A stretch of 64,000 nucleotides of DNA from an uncultured Gammaproteobacteria bacterium (GCA_965231125.1 OZ246414.1:17739-81738), one strand, 5' to 3'. Shown: positions 12,958 through 28,437, numbered from the stretch's first letter. Program-made: numbers and translations. The notes: generated by a model not told the origin, from the letters alone.

Positions 12958-13785
12958 TTAATTTCTTTGGCAATTGGGGCAATAGTGAGTACCTCTACCC
13001 CCAACACGTATCTTTCTTACTATAGCGCCGCAGCGCGGACACGGCTCTCCGTTTAAGCGAAAGACTCTCAGATTTTTGGCGTGACCACCTTTCTTTGCAT
13101 AAATATCTAGATATTGATCAACACTTGTACCCCGATCTTCAATTCCTTCTTTAATGACAAATAAAATTGCATCGAACAATTTTTGAAGTTCTGCTTCGCT
13201 TAATTTGTTTGCGGGCCGTTCTGGGTGGATTTTGGCGCGCCACAAAGCTTCATCAGCGTAAATGTTTCCTACCCCGGAAATTTTCTTTTGGTCCATGATT
13301 ACAGTTTTAACAGCCCGGCTGCTTTTGGAAACAATTTTTTTGAAGGCATCAAACGTAAATTCTGGTGTGAAAGGTTCAGGTCCAAATTCAGCTAGGATTT
13401 TGTCCAAATCGCCTTTGTCTTTAACCACTTTCATAAATCCAAATTTTCTCAGATCGTTAAACCGCAGCTCCTCACCACCGTCAAGTTCAACTATAATGTG
13501 AGTGAACCTGTCTTTTGGATCCCCCGCTCTTCTTAAAAAAAGTTGGCCGGAAAGTTTTAAGTGGATTGCAATTGTGGTTCCGTGATCGTCCAGGTTCATC
13601 AGGAGAAGTTTTGCCCGCCGTTGAAAATCCTTAATCTTTTTTCCGTCAATTGCTTTCTCCATGTCTTCCGGTGAGGGTTTTAGCATTTTTGGCGCGTCAT
13701 AATATTTAAGCCGGATAATCTTACGACCCTTAAGCTCCTTGTTTAAATCACGGCGTATTGTTTCAACCTCAGGAAGTTCTGGCAT
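12958..13785 (-). CDS. formamidopyrimidine-DNA glycosylase (Fpg/Nei family), paralogue 1
   Basis: N-terminus MPELPEVE (catalytic Pro2/Glu3) and a C-terminal zinc finger CPRCG...CPNCQ. Confidence 0.85.
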   Translation of the reverse strand: MPELPEVETIRRDLNKELKGRKIIRLKYYDAPKMLKPSPEDMEKAIDGKKIKDFQRRAKLLLMNLDDHGTTIAIHLKLSGQLFLRRAGDPKDRFTHIIVELDGGEELRFNDLRKFGFMKVVKDKGDLDKILAEFGPEPFTPEFTFDAFKKIVSKSSRAVKTVIMDQKKISGVGNIYADEALWRAKIHPERPANKLSEAELQKLFDAILFVIKEGIEDRGTSVDQYLDIYAKKGGHAKNLRVFRLNGEPCPRCGAIVRKIRVGGRGTHYCPNCQRN

Positions 13786-14896: not shown

Positions 14897-15739
14897 CTAA
14901 AAAAGACTTAGCTGCTCCTTCGGCTGACAAGAAGGGCAAAAATGAGTACGGCGGCCAGAAATTTCAATCATTTCAATCGGAGTTGAACAATTCCGGCAAG
15001 GCTGTCCAGTTCGACCATAAACATAAAAACTTTCTTGATTTTTCCCCGGTTGCCCGTAAAGATTTAAATAGCTGTCAATGGTGCTGCCACCGGCGGCGAG
15101 ATCTTTTTCAAGCACCTCCCTGACTGCGGTTAATAAATTTTCTGATTCCTCGGCAGTGATTGATCGCGGGTGTCTTTTTGGGTTAATCTTGGCCACAAAT
15201 AAAGCTTCATCAGCGTTAATGTTTCCCACTCCGGCCATTATTGACTGGTCAAGCAGCGCTTCTTTCATGTTAGTAATGTTCGTGGAAGACAAAGCTTGTT
15301 TTAAATAATCAGAGGTCGCTTTATCCGGCTCTGGCCCTAGCTTTTTATCTAAAAGAGCTAAATCCTCTTTATCCCAAAGAGAAACCTCTGCAAATCTGGC
15401 TCGATCAGTGAAACGCAACTGTCGACCGTCATCTAGATTTATAGTTAACCGAAGAAATTCGTCCGACAAGTCGCTAGGTTTGCGCAGCAGCAATCGGCCC
15501 GTCATTTTCAAATGAAACATTAAATGATAATCGTCCGTTAATGAAAGTAGTAAATATTTGCCGCGACGACGCGATTTAAGAATTTTCTTCCCCGGCAAAA
15601 TTGCTTCCAAATCTCTTGCTTGTCTCGCCTTTAAACTATTCCCATTTTCTGGATCAAAAGTTGCTTGTGTGATTACACGACCAATTATTTCATCACCTAA
15701 CTGACGTCTAATAATTTCTACTTCTGGTAGTTCCGGCAT
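14897..15739 (-). CDS. formamidopyrimidine-DNA glycosylase (Fpg/Nei family), paralogue 2
   Basis: N-terminus MPELPEVE and a C-terminal zinc finger CRNC...CPSCQ. It overlaps polA by 32 nt. Confidence 0.85.
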   Translation of the reverse strand: MPELPEVEIIRRQLGDEIIGRVITQATFDPENGNSLKARQARDLEAILPGKKILKSRRRGKYLLLSLTDDYHLMFHLKMTGRLLLRKPSDLSDEFLRLTINLDDGRQLRFTDRARFAEVSLWDKEDLALLDKKLGPEPDKATSDYLKQALSSTNITNMKEALLDQSIMAGVGNINADEALFVAKINPKRHPRSITAEESENLLTAVREVLEKDLAAGGSTIDSYLNLYGQPGKNQESFYVYGRTGQPCRNCSTPIEMIEISGRRTHFCPSCQPKEQLSLF

Positions 15740-25097: not shown

Positions 25098-25185
25098 GTA
25101 TAAACATCATATAAAATTGGCGGTTCTATTTCCAGTTCTTCTGTTTGACTTGAAAACATCTTTGTGTTAATATTCATTCCTCAAC

Positions 25186-25255
25186 GCGGGTGGGGGGTTT
25201 AGAATCCCGCGAGGCTCATAATCTCGCTCAAGCCGGTGCGAATCCGGCACCCGCA
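25186..25255 (+). tRNA. tRNA-like gene with CAU anticodon loop (CTCATAA), non-canonical short D-arm and 4-bp T-stem
   Basis: Acceptor GCGGGTG/CACCCGC, anticodon arm GCGAGG-CTCATAA-TCTCGC, and T-arm CCGG-TGCGAAT-CCGG. A terminator follows directly. Confidence 0.45.
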
Positions 25256-25261
25256 ACCACG

Positions 25262-25297
25262 CAAACCCTACTTTAAAGGTAGGGTTTGTGCGTTTTT
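25262..25297 (+). terminator. rho-independent terminator after the tRNA-like gene
   Basis: CAAACCCTAC-tttaaag-GTAGGGTTTG followed by TGCGTTTTT. Confidence 0.55.
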
Positions 25298-25314: not shown

Positions 25315-25330
25315 TAAGAGCAGCGGACTC
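25315..25330 (+). repeat. duplicated internal tRNA(CAU) fragment TAAGAGCAGCGGACTC, copy 1
   Basis: It matches positions 21-36 of the tRNA at 25443..25517 (D-stem 3' strand, anticodon stem 5' strand, loop start). A 6-bp hairpin plus TTTT follows. Confidence 0.5.
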
Positions 25331-25417
25331 AAAGGACGCGTTGCGTCCTGTGCTTTTGGAGGCAGCGTAGCTCAGTGGTAGCATGCTTTGCATGCTGCGA
25401 CCTCGCTTTGCGAGGAC

Positions 25418-25433
25418 TAAGAGCAGCGGACTC
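25418..25433 (+). repeat. duplicated internal tRNA(CAU) fragment TAAGAGCAGCGGACTC, copy 2
   Basis: Identical 16-mer, 10 nt upstream of the intact tRNA. Confidence 0.5.
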
Positions 25434-25442
25434 TAGCAATTT

Positions 25443-25517
25443 GCCAGGGTAGCTCAGTGGTAGAGCAGCGGACTCATAAGCCGTTGGTCGGGAGTTCGAA
25501 TCTCCCCCCTGGCACCA
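25443..25517 (+). tRNA. tRNA with CAU anticodon (Met, fMet or Ile2-lysidine type), CCA encoded
   Basis: GCCAGGG-TA-GCTC-AGTGGTA-GAGC-A-GCGGA-CTCATAA-GCCGT-TGGTC-GGGAG-TTCGAAT-CTCCC-CCCTGGC-A-CCA. The cloverleaf is canonical apart from an A31/G39 mismatch. Confidence 0.85.
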
Positions 25518-25603
25518 ATGGGCAAATTGCGCAGCAAGCTGAGCTTGCTTAAAGCCTAGGTCGCAGGTTCGAATCCAGCCGCTGCCGTCACAACCACCAA
25601 ACA

Positions 25604-25632
25604 TTGACAAAAAAATTCTCCTGGCGTACGAT
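25604..25632 (+). promoter_or_regulatory. TTGACA-17-TACGAT promoter 8 nt upstream of the 25641 ATG (leaderless-type arrangement)
   Basis: Seen directly in the sequence. Confidence 0.35.
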
Positions 25633-25640
25633 TTAATCTG

Positions 25641-26105
25641 ATGAGTATTCTTGATGAGATACGTTCTTCGGTAAAAAATCCAGCTAGCATAAAAAGTTTC
25701 TACGTGCTCTTTGTAACAGTTTTCTTCTTACTTCTTATACCCCTAACCGTCTTTGGAGTGTTATCGGAAAGGACTCTAATAACGCAGGCCCAAGGATCCT
25801 GTGCTCTACCCGCCGAAAAAACTTTTACCGGCAGAGTCACCCCTAATCAAAACGGAGACCACGCATTTATATTCAAGGGGACAGACTGCTCTCTAAACGC
25901 ATGGGTAAATGGTGATGGAAATTCCGATCTTGCACTTTGGATATATCAACCTGACGGCACCATTCGAGTGGTAGATGACAGGAAAGATAAAAGCTACGAG
26001 TTTGTTTCTATTCCAGCTCCGGTTAAAGAAGGCGGTTACAGATTATCCGTAAGGTTAAAATCCGGTGTTGCTACTAGCTACACGACCACTGTTTCATTCC
26101 GCTGA
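25641..26105 (+). CDS. membrane-anchored/secreted hypothetical protein (154 aa)
   Basis: Has an N-terminal hydrophobic segment but no recognisable domain. Confidence 0.45.
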   Translation: MSILDEIRSSVKNPASIKSFYVLFVTVFFLLLIPLTVFGVLSERTLITQAQGSCALPAEKTFTGRVTPNQNGDHAFIFKGTDCSLNAWVNGDGNSDLALWIYQPDGTIRVVDDRKDKSYEFVSIPAPVKEGGYRLSVRLKSGVATSYTTTVSFR

Positions 26106-26107
26106 AA

Positions 26108-26452
26108 TCACTGCGTAAATACTCTCAGCCAAAGCTGCCAGTTAGATAAATTTCTAGCATATTGTTGGCTGCTACTAGCATCGTTTCCGGATCCTCCGTC
26201 CACAACGTAAATTGTTTCTCCTTTTTTAGCCAAACCCAAAGTATCCCTCGCTTGTTGCTCCACAAAACCGCCAGACTCCCGTTTTTTTAGCTCTTTTTTT
26301 AGAACCTCAGTTTGGTTGTGTAGAGACTGCTCTTGTTTCCCTACCTCAGAAAGGCCGTGTAATTTTTTATAAGAGCTATAGATGTTTTTCGTTAAAGCAA
26401 CACTGGAAGAGACCAGAACAAAAATTATTATAAAGCTAACAATCTTCCTCAC
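26108..26452 (-). CDS. FtsB/DivIC-like septum formation initiator family protein
   Basis: N-terminal TM helix, a coiled-coil region, and DTLGLAKKGETIYVV typical of the family. It uses a GTG start with the RBS TAAGGT. Confidence 0.5.
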   Translation of the reverse strand: MRKIVSFIIIFVLVSSSVALTKNIYSSYKKLHGLSEVGKQEQSLHNQTEVLKKELKKRESGGFVEQQARDTLGLAKKGETIYVVDGGSGNDASSSQQYARNLSNWQLWLRVFTQ

Positions 26453-26460
26453 ACCTTAAT

Positions 26461-26524
26461 TATATCGCTTTTGCGATACAAAAGCAGATGCAATCTGCGA
26501 TTTAATCGCTTTTGCGATACAATC
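26461..26524. promoter_or_regulatory. two copies of the palindromic motif TATATCGCTTTTGCGATACAA overlapping a -10-like TATAAT, upstream of the ftsB-like gene
   Basis: The inverted repeat ATCGC-TTTT-GCGAT occurs twice, at 26464..26477 and 26505..26518. The same motif is found upstream of sufD at 39913..39960. Confidence 0.4.
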
Positions 26525-26557
26525 GAAAGCAATGTAACCCACGGCGATTATAAACTT

Positions 26558-26594
26558 CCGAGGGCTAAAACCCTCGGTATTGTTCTTTAAGTTT
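26558..26594 (+). terminator. plus-strand rho-independent terminator-like hairpin with no annotated plus-strand gene upstream (possible small RNA 3' end)
   Basis: CCGAGGG-ctaaaa-CCCTCGG followed by TATTGTTCTTTAAGTTT. Confidence 0.4.
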
Positions 26595-26814
26595 ACACGA
26601 GCGCAGAAAACCCTTGAAAGTCTAACTTACATTTCCCCTCAGAAGTGTGTAATCACTCTTAGCATTCATCCCCACTTTAAGAAAGTGGATTTTCTGCTAG
26701 CGATTATAATCGATCCACCTAATAGAGTTCACGAATGCTGAGGGTTCAACATAATGAGAGTCCCATAGTCTCTTGACAAGTGCCTTCTCTACTGGTAAAA
26801 TTACTTTATAGCTT

Positions 26815-27687
26815 ATGATTAAGGTTTCTGACGCGCATAAAAAGTTTATAGAACATCTAAAAAGTCAAGGTCGCTCTTCGGCGACTGTTTTGGCTTATGG
26901 GAAAGATATCGAACAGCTTAAAGATTTTCTCGCTGATCTTAAAAAGGCTCAGGTCCAAGAGATAACCACTAAGGATCTCCAAGCTTTCATGGCAAAACTC
27001 AACAAGGAAGGCTACACACCAAAAAGTATTTCCCGAAAAACAAACTCAACAAAAACCTTTTTTAGATTCTTAAAAGTCAACGAATTTGTAACTGATGACC
27101 CAGCCATTTTACTTGAACACCCACGATTCGAAATGAAACCGCCGAGAATCCTGACTAAGATGGAATATCGCGCCTTAAGAGATTCAGCTAGAGACGACAC
27201 TAGGATTTCGGCAATAATCGAGCTTTTGCTCCAAACCGGAATTAGAATTGGAGAACTGGCCAAATTAAAACTTTCTGACGCGAAATTTTCTAATAACAGT
27301 AAGGCTGGGGAACTTCACGTACCGGCTGGGGAATCTTACCCAGAAAGAACTGTTCCTGTAAATAAAGCCGCTGAGGGGGCTTTGAAGAAATACATAGAGA
27401 TCCGACCGCAAACAAAGGACGAAACCATGTTCGTGACTAAAACTGGTCGACCCCTACTTGTAAGAAACATTAGAACCGCTATCGACCGCTACTTTAAACT
27501 CGCCAGCATTAAAAACGCCAAGGTAAACGATCTTCGCCACACCTTTGTGGCCCATCACTTAATGAGCGGTACTTCTCTTGTTCTAGTTTCCAAACTTGCC
27601 GGCCACAAGAGACTAGCTACTACAGAAAAATACCTCAATCTGATTCAAGGACGCGTCGAAGAACCAATTAAACTCAACGAGCTCTAA
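26815..27687 (+). CDS. tyrosine site-specific recombinase/integrase (XerC/D-like)
   Basis: Has an N-terminal SAM-like domain. The catalytic residues LRHTF and HKRLATTEKY (R...H..R...Y) are present. Confidence 0.85.
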   Translation: MIKVSDAHKKFIEHLKSQGRSSATVLAYGKDIEQLKDFLADLKKAQVQEITTKDLQAFMAKLNKEGYTPKSISRKTNSTKTFFRFLKVNEFVTDDPAILLEHPRFEMKPPRILTKMEYRALRDSARDDTRISAIIELLLQTGIRIGELAKLKLSDAKFSNNSKAGELHVPAGESYPERTVPVNKAAEGALKKYIEIRPQTKDETMFVTKTGRPLLVRNIRTAIDRYFKLASIKNAKVNDLRHTFVAHHLMSGTSLVLVSKLAGHKRLATTEKYLNLIQGRVEEPIKLNEL

Positions 27688-27688
27688 A

Positions 27689-28111
27689 CTAACTTGGCTT
27701 TAAATCAGAAAGGCTTATGGTTCCCGGTTTTGGAGCTTCCAAGAGGTTTAGAGGTTGCTCTCCGACTTTATCACCGTCTACAAAAATTTGAACTTTATAA
27801 TCTCCCGGCTTCGGAAAACTCGAATTAATCACTTCCACAATAAAATTAAAATTTCTATTCAAGGCCTCGGGCGGCAGGTTTATCTCCCTTTCTTCTTCCC
27901 TATCCATTAGGGGGTTTCCGGTAGCGTCCGACAGCACAACACTCATTTTAAACTTCTCTTTTGAAGAAGCAATGGAACCAACTACCACAAACTTCGGGTG
28001 AGTGACCGGAAAGCGGGCGGCATTTATGTTCTCGAAGACTCCAATTATATTTAGCTTTTTGTCGATGGACAAAAAAGCACTATCCGCCAAAAGAACGTAA
28101 AGAAGTTTCAT
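27689..28111 (-). CDS. hypothetical protein (140 aa)
   Basis: Complete ORF with no recognisable family. Confidence 0.4.
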   Translation of the reverse strand: MKLLYVLLADSAFLSIDKKLNIIGVFENINAARFPVTHPKFVVVGSIASSKEKFKMSVVLSDATGNPLMDREEEREINLPPEALNRNFNFIVEVINSSFPKPGDYKVQIFVDGDKVGEQPLNLLEAPKPGTISLSDLKPS

Positions 28112-28181
28112 AGTCTTCCAATTATATCACTTTGATTGGACTCAACATAAATGCTATAATCTATCCCAATTCAACATTGAT

Positions 28182-28205
28182 TGTTAGCTCCAAGGTAGAG
28201 CACCA
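28182..28205 (+). repeat. partial internal copy of tRNA-Ile (GGTAGAGCACCACTCTTTAAAG) upstream of the gene
   Basis: It matches the D-arm 3' half and anticodon arm of 28231..28306, with two single-nt deletions. Confidence 0.5.
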
Positions 28206-28230
28206 CTCTTTAAAGCCGAGAAACTGGCTT

Positions 28231-28306
28231 GGGCCAGTAGCTCAGCGGTTAGAGCACCACTCTTATAAAGTGGGGGTCCTTGGTTCGAATCCAAGCTGGC
28301 CCACCA
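28231..28306 (+). tRNA. tRNA-Ile with UAU anticodon, CCA encoded
   Basis: GGGCCAG-TA-GCTC-AGCGGTTA-GAGC-A-CCACT-CTTATAA-AGTGG-GGGTC-CTTGG-TTCGAAT-CCAAG-CTGGCCC-A-CCA. Fully canonical cloverleaf. Confidence 0.85.
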
Positions 28307-28371
28307 TTAGGTCTTAATTGACTTGATTACTGTGGCGTTTCTCGGCTTGCGTCCCCTAAAAGCGAGGTTAA

Positions 28372-28398
28372 AAGTGGGGGTCCTTGGTTCGAATCCAT
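28372..28398 (+). repeat. exact 27-nt duplicate of the tRNA-Ile 3' portion (anticodon-stem 3' strand through T-loop), 65 nt downstream of the gene
   Basis: AAAGTGGGGGTCCTTGGTTCGAATCCA is identical to 28268..28294. After CCA it diverges (TCCGAGCTCG). Confidence 0.6.
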
Positions 28399-28437
28399 CC
28401 GAGCTCGTTTAATTTTTAGAAGAGACTAATCAATTTC

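Follow-up and report, generated by a model that had tools for sequence, protein, structure and literature searches.

Within a stretch of 64,000 nucleotides (GCA_965231125.1, OZ246414.1:17739-81738; hereafter the window, with positions counted from its first letter), a tyrosine recombinase gene lies between a tRNA-CAU locus and a tRNA-Ile(UAU) gene, and partial tRNA copies are found at both tRNA loci. An earlier sequence-only reading regarded these copies as the footprint expected of integrative elements that recombine within the anticodon loop, and the segment 25600-28230 as a possible degraded islet or integration hotspot, which raises the question of what interrupted these tRNA genes and whether the recombinase had a part in it. 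Judging from sequence comparison, we put the probability at roughly 70% that the nested tRNA locus represents an old tRNA-Ile gene split by a cassette that encodes no protein, the recombinase being a core Xer-like gene in a segment of core genome. tRNA nesting recurs in these tiny bacteria of the Candidate Phyla Radiation (CPR), and the phenomenon is best described as recurrent tRNA gene replacement by anticodon-loop cassettes, a form of tRNA-targeted mobile DNA.

Three tRNA genes, all on the + strand, are called in the window by ARAGORN and Rfam; no credible extra tRNA was detected there with the intron and pseudogene options of ARAGORN, and Rfam matches at E<=1 comprise tRNAs only, those to Plastid-ycf2 being antisense tRNA. 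The live tRNA-Ile(UAU), an allele also present in L005, L007, L010, and L037 (loci of relatives and of metagenomes are cited by their L numbers), is bracketed together with its 30-nt trailer by a 12-nt inverted repeat whose arms are paired in the minimum-free-energy fold, and the remains of a second tRNA-Ile gene are situated on either side of this unit (Table 1). The outer 5′ half has lost its 5′ acceptor strand and lacks A35; it shares an exact 15-nt core with the inner gene (28196-28210 and 28250-28264) and matches positions 7-43 of a tRNA-Ile profile (E = 4e-4). The upstream copy noted previously is therefore present, although the length given (24 nt) was too short and the whole D-arm is included. 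The exact 27-nt downstream copy that had also been claimed (AAAGTGGGGGTCCTTGGTTCGAATCCA) was confirmed, 28371-28397 being identical on the same strand to 28267-28293; by simple arithmetic the chance of a 27-mer recurring within a few hundred bases is <1e-12, and the outer 3′ half matches profile positions 36-69 (E = 3e-7). The outer T-stem is unpaired, its 5′ strand (CTTGG) having the sequence of the inner gene and its 3′ strand (CCATC) being of an older type that is also seen at the 3′ end of the outer 3′ half in L005 and of the L008/L011 tRNA; the 3′ end of the orphan (...CCATCCGAGCT), located 65 nt from the live tRNA, differs from that of the live gene (CCAAGCTGGCCC). Since the 27-mer is exact and the T-stem strands are of two types, the 27-mer is read as a gene conversion tract and not a fresh att site. 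A pseudo-acceptor pairing of CTCGG with CCGAG, also proposed earlier, did not hold up, as CTCGG (28342-28346) forms part of the 12-nt inverted repeat and is not the partner of CCGAG (28399). Without a 5′ acceptor strand and with an unpaired T-stem and a damaged loop, the outer tRNA-Ile gene of the window is judged to be dead. A terminator-like hairpin (28386-28405) is located inside its 3′ relic.

The composite unit as a whole is probably driven by the predicted sigma-70-like promoter upstream of the outer relic. The window cassette contains no promoter-like site of its own, and in relatives, by reading of the sequences, a TGnTATAAT-type -10 element is found 5′ of the outer 5′ half and none within the cassette. 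The nest is common to L005, L037, and L143 and must hence be old, and the window copy is an old, decaying example. Within the trailer is a small hairpin (28310-28323; GGTC TTAATT GACT) that covaries, a compensatory change between UA and CG occurring in seven sequences. The ∼30-nt trailer abuts the encoded CCA of the tRNA-Ile, has the consensus AGGYCTTAATTGRCTWGATYAYWGTGG with its 4-bp hairpin and compensatory changes, and is kept, in nested and un-nested genes alike, in 23 distinct sequences from the Woykebacteria clade.

In L005, L009, L010, L014, and L017, the orphan 5′ half pairs with the orphan 3′ half and not with the inner gene, which is a different allele. Such mutual pairing, together with an orphan 3′ acceptor strand unlike that of the live tRNA, indicates that the fragments derive from one older split gene and do not represent attL/attR. 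In L009, an intact tRNA-Ile (GGGTCCA...TGGACCC) is split in its loop, with TATAA repeated at both junctions, by an insert of ∼170 nt that holds a different, complete tRNA-Ile (GGATCGG). One layer each is present in L010, L014, and L017, two to three in L005, two in L131, where the arms are perfect over 17 and 20 bp and the tRNA parts are identical in all layers, and at least four in L109. The plan of the insert is constant, namely left arm, short spacer, complete tRNA, trailer, complementary right arm, small hairpin, and junction. Inserts comprise ∼125-225 nt (most 125-195 nt, with up to ∼225 nt in L076), ∼75 nt of which are tRNA, and contain no open reading frame (ORF); the arms, 12 nt and perfect in the window, are 9-20 nt elsewhere. 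A cassette designated family A (TCTTGCG...tRNA...trailer...GCAAGATGTATTCTTGCGAA) is homologous in L009, L072, L076, and L005, and that of the window is designated family B. The window nest is identical to those in L001-L003, as is L017 to L062, in independent assemblies, which rules out assembly artefacts.

Minimum-free-energy folds of the composite RNAs consist of nested cloverleaves in which a long cassette helix prolongs the outer anticodon stem; the helix runs on from that stem with no obvious 3-nt bulges, no formal bulge-helix-bulge search having been made. These folds could be taken to mean that the insert is an intron, the outer tRNA being functional through some bacterial splicing activity and the inner tRNA being an extra gene riding in the intron, an arrangement resembling archaeal split and intron-containing tRNAs. 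A number of the outer genes are undamaged and assume a cloverleaf fold in which the cassette helix lengthens the anticodon arm, ARAGORN reports them, if introns of 10-300 nt are allowed, as tRNA-Ile(tat) interrupted at positions 35-37, and the junction repeats of family A (TATA/TATAA) would permit exact restoration of the loop. Joined exons give a structurally sound tRNA in L009, L072, L076, and L126 but not in the window, where the outer gene could not work (no 5′ acceptor strand, an unpaired T-stem, and the loop CTT-TAAA), and family-B junctions would not restore a UAU loop. Moreover, the outer copy has decayed in many nests and the inner gene is always intact, the reverse never being seen, and no group I intron or Rfam family other than tRNA was found in the window region at E<=1. 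To our knowledge, no tRNA-splicing endonuclease occurs in bacteria. An intron therefore seems distinctly improbable.

The family-A cassette sits in four different host alleles and the host-specific anticodon stems reach the junction, an arrangement that rules out the tRNA halves as a route of spread by homologous recombination. The L006 tRNA and the inner tRNA of L014 are uninterrupted versions of two of these host alleles, and between L076 and L014 the nest DNA is 91-97% identical as against 71-77% for the flanking genes. In these comparisons the cassette behaves like a small non-autonomous mobile element, one that spares its host by bringing a replacement gene. Mobility would be dispensed with if the loci had arisen by local tandem tRNA duplication followed by deletion, decay, and gene conversion, and gene conversion does operate here (the 27-mer is joined to an older 3′ end, and the layers of L131 are identical), while L033 has three tandem 150-nt units. 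However, the inner gene is flanked by a leader and a trailer that form inverted complements and not direct repeats, inner and outer genes are usually different alleles, one and the same cassette occupies four host alleles, and the break points are confined to the anticodon loop, all of which renders duplication without mobility barely credible.

Public metagenomes were scanned for the tRNA-Ile(UAU) anticodon arm, which yielded 120 loci, and the counts given here cover these and the relatives. A 5′ fragment is located upstream on the same strand of 29 of 129 tRNA-Ile(UAU) genes and a 3′ fragment downstream of 28 of 130, so that ∼22% of the 130 loci have same-strand halves, and opposite-strand fragments were absent from all 259 flanks. 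The fragment ends cluster at tRNA positions 33-38. Nesting is shown by these counts to be recurrent, directional, and aimed at the anticodon loop of the cognate tRNA. True nests with anticodon-loop breaks were also found at Val-GAC (L084:6673-6860 and L141:2685-2900), Glu-UUC (L115:2200-2382), and Met (L089:5910-6106) genes; these possess inverted-repeat arms and no TATA, which implies that the target is the loop as a structure and not the TATA sequence. Junctions in general repeat TATAA, TATA, AT, or nothing, with a small deletion in the Val and Met nests. Median scores for arm complementarity are 11.0 in nested and 7.2 in un-nested units, against a 99th percentile of 11.3 for mismatched controls; pairing of leader and trailer as a general property of tRNA units was rejected, as enrichment is found in nested units alone. 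Among arm mismatches, G-U outnumber A-C by 14 to 8, a gauge of RNA- versus DNA-level selection that settles neither. Viral contigs were found to contain no copy of the tRNA-Ile anticodon arm.

Several points weigh against a split by a mobile cassette. The contrast between tRNA-Ile(UAU) (22%) and the other tRNAs of the same loci (9 of 233 with fragments, or 4%) is biased, the tRNA-Ile loci having been chosen by their anticodon arm. Mobility is read from comparison between species, and transcription and processing from anatomy; for none of the cassettes was an enzyme, an excised circle, or an empty/filled polymorphism within a population observed. Arm sequences differ from element to element, and the apparent target duplication of 0-5 nt is such that no known transposition chemistry fits cleanly. 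The left junction of family B in the window (CTT-TAAAG, with A35 missing) is unexplained, and this same odd junction (N34|TAG or TAAAG) recurs at Ile and Met loci. Finally, the outer genes of L009, L072, L076, and L126 are fully intact, and splicing is possible there.

The tRNA-Met(CAU) locus of the window is, from its layout, an older, more decayed, multi-layer version of the tRNA-Ile nest. Two extra copies of the D-stem/anticodon-stem segment are present, with TAAGAGCAGCGGACTC at 25315 and 25418 (and a third copy of 88% identity at 25460) and GTAGCTCAGTGGT at 25367 and 25449, and a 3′ half follows the inner gene, in keeping with the earlier suggestion that both tRNA loci share one type of footprint. 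The relic leader is likewise present in L012. The UAU tRNA does coexist with two CAU tRNAs, as had been remarked, although this is unexceptional, the pair consisting of one initiator-like and one elongator-like gene. The D-arm of the initiator-like tRNA is odd, and the gene matches the Rfam tRNA model with only 20.4 bits, short of the gathering threshold (29), yet is almost invariant in all relatives.

Table 1. Features of the two tRNA loci and the recombinase gene in the 64-kb window.
Feature	Position	Strand	Remarks
Initiator-like tRNA(CAU)	25185-25259	+	C1/A72 mismatch; followed by terminator 25260-25290; un-nested
Older tRNA-Met 5′-half relics	25315-25436	+	AAGAGCAGCGGACTC at 25316 and 25419
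Small palindromes interrupting tRNA-Met relics	25333-25349, 25380-25396, 25401-25415		
Acceptor and D-arm piece GGCAGCGTAGCTCAGTGGTAG	25361-25381	+	
Inverted repeat around tRNA-Met, GCAATTTGCC / GGCAAATTGC	25436-25445 / 25521-25530	+	
Inner tRNA-Met(CAU)	25443-25517	+	ARAGORN and Rfam; within unit 25436-25530
Small hairpin	25533-25549	+	Just 5′ of outer tRNA-Met 3′ half
Outer tRNA-Met 3′ half	25550-25590	+	Acceptor strand CGCTGCC pairs with GGCAGCG at 25361
Xer-like tyrosine recombinase (Int)	26815-27687	+	Promoter 26773-26801 conserved
Sigma-70-like promoter, TTGATT-17-TATAAT with TG (predicted)	28132-28160	+	5′ of outer relic
Outer (relic) tRNA-Ile 5′ half	28185-28215	+	31 nt; D-arm, anticodon-stem 5′ strand, part of loop; TAGCTCCAAGGTAGAGCACCACTCTT-TAAAG
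Cassette inverted repeat, left arm AAGCCGAGAAAC	28213-28224	+	12 nt, perfect
Inner, functional tRNA-Ile(UAU)	28231-28306	+	Acceptor type GGGCCAG; CCA encoded; 74.7 bits; ARAGORN and Rfam
Conserved 3′ trailer	28307-28336	+	Single copy in window; 23 distinct trailers compared
Cassette inverted repeat, right arm GTTTCTCGGCTT	28337-28348	+	Pairs with 28213-28224
Decayed small hairpin module, cassette right end	28349-28368	+	Homologous to GTCCCGtgaaaCGGGAC in L005; same position in L005, L014, L017, L131
Outer (relic) tRNA-Ile 3′ half	28369-28405	+	28371-28397 identical to inner gene; rest (TCCGAGCT) of older type

The recombinase ORF between the two tRNA loci is as originally described. Its product, Int, contains the Pfam domains Phage_int_SAM_1 and Phage_integrase, matches the NCBIfam models XerC, XerD, and XerA over its full length (170, 162, and 153 bits, all under the equivalog cut-offs), and has the PDB matches 4a8e, 1a0p, and 5hxy. 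Orthologs of 60-86% identity are found in 18 species-level genomes of Candidatus Woykebacteria, Woesebacteria, and other Microgenomates. Across Woykebacteria, Int is 81-86% identical, compared with 25-74% for most neighbours, the response regulator alone being comparable (71-88%). The catalytic residues R, R, H, and Y align, whereas the beta-hairpin Lys is absent (AGESYPER versus GKGNKER in XerD) and Asn replaces the first His of HxxR (VNDLRH); both departures hold across orthologs, and in the ortholog of L130 Phe occupies the position of the Tyr nucleophile. By these alignments Int is Xer-like but atypical, and it may represent a recombinase-like protein, tied to divIC, whose catalysis is unusual or absent.

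The order of genes in the window, CNNM, two tRNA-CAU genes, p154, DivIC, Int, DUF6941, tRNA-Ile(UAU), CvpA-CAP, an FeS-assembly protein (PF01883), and a response regulator, is kept in relatives. The divergent pair DivIC(-)/Int(+) is found in 18 of 19 loci compared, the exception being L016, where there was no DivIC match, and in the L130 lineage, with an Int of 48% identity, the pair is retained and followed by an FtsI-type transpeptidase. Other window genes have housekeeping functions (DNA ligase, a ClpB-like ATPase, FolD, two Fpg paralogs, PolA, FtsH, a class I aminoacyl-tRNA synthetase, and the SUF system), and a scan of 48 window ORFs revealed neither a transposase nor a second integrase. 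The two Fpg/Nei-type DNA glycosylase paralogs (12958-13785 and 14897-15739) are ∼1 kb apart and adjoin polA. The segment between the tRNA loci is thus, as far as gene order can tell, core genome and no island, and the recombinase a conserved chromosomal Xer-like gene.

A degraded integrative islet at 25600-28230, whose integrase recombined in anticodon loops and left the fragments as attL/attR-type remnants, was a natural suggestion for a tyrosine recombinase located between two tRNA loci that both have partial tRNA copies with ends in the anticodon loop. The same genes occur in the same order in species-level relatives, however, and alignment of these in search of an empty site, with tRNA-CAU followed directly by tRNA-Ile, met the intervening genes instead. 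The sequence-only reading had itself pointed to conserved intervening genes and an orthologous Xer as marks of a core layout, and gene order and the conservation of Int for the most part agree with that description. In distant lineages, Int is found in a divIC/ftsI context, and the window offers housekeeping genes and no further mobile-element genes among the 48 ORFs scanned. The orphans themselves are also ill-suited to an islet: they lie 15-65 nt from the live tRNA and not at the ends of the 2.6-kb segment, a 5′ orphan is present as well as a 3′ one, and the 3′ acceptor strand of the orphan, differing from that of the live tRNA, could not be a product of classical integration. The proposed footprint of recombination in the anticodon loop consequently survives in its break points, which do fall in that loop, but not in the islet or in the fragments as classical attL/attR, and an islet is very improbable. 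For the window the message is a negative one, in that it holds no genomic island and its recombinase gene, which is Xer-like, belongs to the core genome.

The divIC-Int spacer (26453-26814) includes terminator-like hairpins on the + strand (26558-26577 and 26672-26688) and a 23-nt direct repeat (26459-26481 and 26500-26522). Its length ranges from 122 to 488 nt among relatives, and only the Int promoter (cccatagtctcTTGACA...) is conserved. The hairpin at 26672-26688, 16/19 of which equals the reverse complement of the tRNA-Ile anticodon arm, was considered as a recombination site and rejected, as it is not conserved in the spacer of any relative and is terminator-like. The ends of public contigs from the same strain (26579, 26629, 26680, and 26692) were also discarded as a recombination junction because their positions differ between assemblies.

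For the split tRNA-Ile gene, the following course of events is proposed. In an ancestor that the window lineage shares with L005, L037, and L143, a cassette of ∼150 nt would have entered the anticodon loop of the resident tRNA-Ile(UAU), bringing a complete tRNA-Ile(UAU) and its trailer hairpin between two inverted-repeat arms, and a small hairpin after the second of these, with neither promoter nor protein gene. The old promoter would then transcribe the old 5′ half as a leader, the cassette, and the old 3′ half, and the inner tRNA would presumably be freed by ordinary end processing with RNase P and 3′ trimming. The old halves would subsequently decay and now and then be overwritten by gene conversion, to which the exact 27-mer is attributed. 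Insertion is envisaged as a DNA-level event catalyzed in trans by an enzyme that is encoded elsewhere and reads the shape of the stem-loop, not the arm sequence, because the arms vary, the duplication is 0-5 nt, and the loop TTATAA is palindromic. The consistent orientation of the inserts may reflect selection, since only a cassette transcribed from the host promoter would rescue the destroyed tRNA gene.

Three chemistries can be considered for such an insertion, none of which fits all junctions. A single-strand mechanism of the HUH/IS200 kind might be suggested by the right ends of family A, where (T/A)TATA mimics the TTATA target and the hairpin abuts the right end, although an IS200/IS605-like layout suits neither family B nor the Val and Met nests, and neither the 48 window ORFs scanned nor the surroundings of L131 and L109 yielded a Y1 (HUH) transposase. 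Near these youngest nests only housekeeping genes were found when an enzyme was sought. The second candidate would be a structure-specific tyrosine recombinase, for which joined cassette ends would form arm-TATA-arm, and the third an RNA-level route.

The second chemistry invites the suggestion that the Xer-like Int itself inserts and excises the cassettes and flips tRNA blocks, with core sites provided by the anticodon stem-loop (arms around TTATAA) and the arm-TATA-arm junction. Both nested loci flank its gene and the linkage of tRNA-Ile with Int holds down to 46-48% identity; tRNA blocks flip between species and the flanking genes do not; and joined cassette ends give a palindrome around TATA, the layout of a tyrosine recombinase site. 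On the other hand, 6 of the 17 nested loci with enough flank have no tyrosine recombinase within 2.5 kb, and the 2x2 table (11/6 versus 12/15; odds ratio ∼2.3) reveals a weak and unconvincing association. The apparently youngest nest, that of L131, is flanked by ftsH and rplS, the target and cassette arm sequences are unconserved, the Val-GAC and Met nests lack TATA or a shared overlap sequence, and Int lacks the beta-hairpin Lys and the first His of HxxR, with Phe for Tyr in one ortholog. The neighbouring Xer-like protein is accordingly a weak candidate for the inserting enzyme, adjacency not being required, and a role for it in the nesting is unlikely.

A broader proposal can also be made, to which we assign somewhat less than even odds: CPR bacteria may harbour a new class of cassettes that encode no protein, carry a complete tRNA gene flanked by palindromic arms, home to the cognate anticodon loop, destroy and replace the gene, and use its promoter. 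Matryoshka tRNA genes and horizontal turnover of alleles would result, insertion would proceed through shape recognition by a new or repurposed chemistry, and the by-product halves could offer a route to split and intron-containing tRNA genes. If a cassette did split the tRNA-Ile gene, a selfish element would hold an essential gene by full replacement, and not by self-splicing or partial target duplication, and its nests would preserve a legible history of how tRNA alleles have turned over in an uncultured lineage. The cassettes would account for the orphan tRNA halves that confuse annotation of CPR genomes, and their two halves with a complementary insert would give bacteria the same layout that figures in the debate on how archaeal split and intron-containing tRNAs arose. 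The disruption of tRNA genes would also become a question testable with existing data.

Phages, islands, and integrative and conjugative elements that integrate in tRNA genes favour anticodon-loop or T-loop sublocations. Like the cassettes, they target a tRNA gene, often in its anticodon loop, preserve its function, leave orphan pieces, and form arrays on repetition; the cassettes differ in being 125-225 nt long, in having no protein and no integrase of their own, and in needing the host promoter. Integrating elements restore the gene with a duplicated 3′ part, whereas the cassette brings a whole tRNA and leaves both 5′ and 3′ orphans. For an archaeal integrating element, a tRNA fragment left behind and a proposed tRNA disruption have been described (PMC3293823). 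Archaeal split and intron-containing tRNA genes, known from Nanoarchaeum and Thermoproteales (PMC4033280; PMC4390854), are likewise interrupted in the anticodon loop and have complementary sequences that can hold the halves together, although there the halves are functional and are joined by splicing endonuclease and ligase, while here a complete inner tRNA is accompanied by decaying halves. Dada DNA transposons target specific sites in tRNA and snRNA genes (PMC3706591) and resemble the cassettes in strict targeting of small-RNA genes by a DNA element, but they are eukaryotic, use a DDE transposase, generate fixed duplications of 6-7 bp, and have multicopy targets, in contrast to a target that is single copy per locus examined and is replaced by the cargo of the element.

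The cassettes also share features with miniature inverted-repeat transposable elements (MITEs), including a similar size, the lack of an ORF, inverted-repeat arms forming a long helix, AT-rich (TA/TATA) junctions at tRNA-Ile, and a probable dependence on a separate enzyme acting in trans. The Correia elements of Neisseria, which are MITEs, measure ∼100-155 bp, are bounded by terminal inverted repeats with a TA duplication, and give rise to transcripts that RNase III cleaves. Unlike MITEs, the cassettes have variable arms, an extra hairpin beside one arm, an apparent duplication of 0-5 nt that is not fixed, and a functional tRNA as cargo, and they target the cognate anticodon loop (with one trailer copy in 64 kb), whereas MITEs use dispersed sites. 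Homing introns and inteins occupy essential genes, and integron cassettes are promoterless, bounded by palindromes, and expressed from a resident promoter. With the former the tRNA cassettes share occupation of an essential gene without loss of function, but by replacement and not by splicing; with integron cassettes they share the missing promoter, variable palindromic bounds, use of a resident promoter, and stacking of insertions, but neither an attI/attC consensus nor a linked integron integrase. None of the systems listed combines a cassette lacking proteins, a complete tRNA cargo, insertion in the cognate anticodon loop, and nesting, and no description of nested bacterial tRNA genes was found in the full-text literature searched, which omits most subscription journals.

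The gene that is replaced belongs to an uncommon but known solution to AUA decoding, so that its rarity in bacteria, noted at the outset, stands: tRNA-Ile with a UAU anticodon reads AUA in bacteria without TilS such as Mycoplasma mobile, Bifidobacterium, and Neorickettsia (PMC3575796). As in these organisms, the tRNA is canonical with an encoded UAU anticodon, and it is kept in all relatives examined, being found in 16 of 18, which are all those whose contig reaches the site. No TilS domain was detected among the 48 ORFs scanned in the 64 kb of the window or adjoining ftsH.

Two other forms of tRNA-Ile turnover were encountered. In L033 (2354-2881) a full tRNA-Ile is followed by three tandem units of ∼150 nt, each ending in a 3′ half, and in L132 (373-1678) a full tRNA is followed by 1.2 kb with two small ORFs (211 and 90 aa) and then by an older tRNA-Ile without its first 18 nt. 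Orientation varies as well. The tRNA-Ile gene of the window shares its + orientation with those of L005, L014, L015, and L022, and every other relative in which the gene was detected has it on the - strand. For the tRNA-CAU pair, the window and L006 are +/+, most relatives are -/-, and L018 and L020 have a mixed arrangement. The order of the pair reverses when both genes flip, i.e., the whole block inverts and the flanking protein genes remain fixed; no opposite-strand fragments that could explain the flips were found.

Small palindromes form a further set of features. Abundance of the small hairpins as a REP-like (repetitive extragenic palindromic) family is unsupported in the window, the CCTCGC..GCGAGG palindrome occurring as one copy in 64 kb, as does the trailer motif. 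Palindromes of the (C)TCGC-TTT(T)-GCGA(G) type are located at 25403-25413, 26465-26476, and 26506-26517, three of the six in the 64 kb thus clustering in the tRNA-Met relic and the divIC-Int spacer, and a relic Val tRNA half in the unrelated metagenome locus L141 has its D-loop interrupted by a related palindrome (GCCTCGCG..CGCGAGGC). Such tiny palindromic inserts may constitute a second class.

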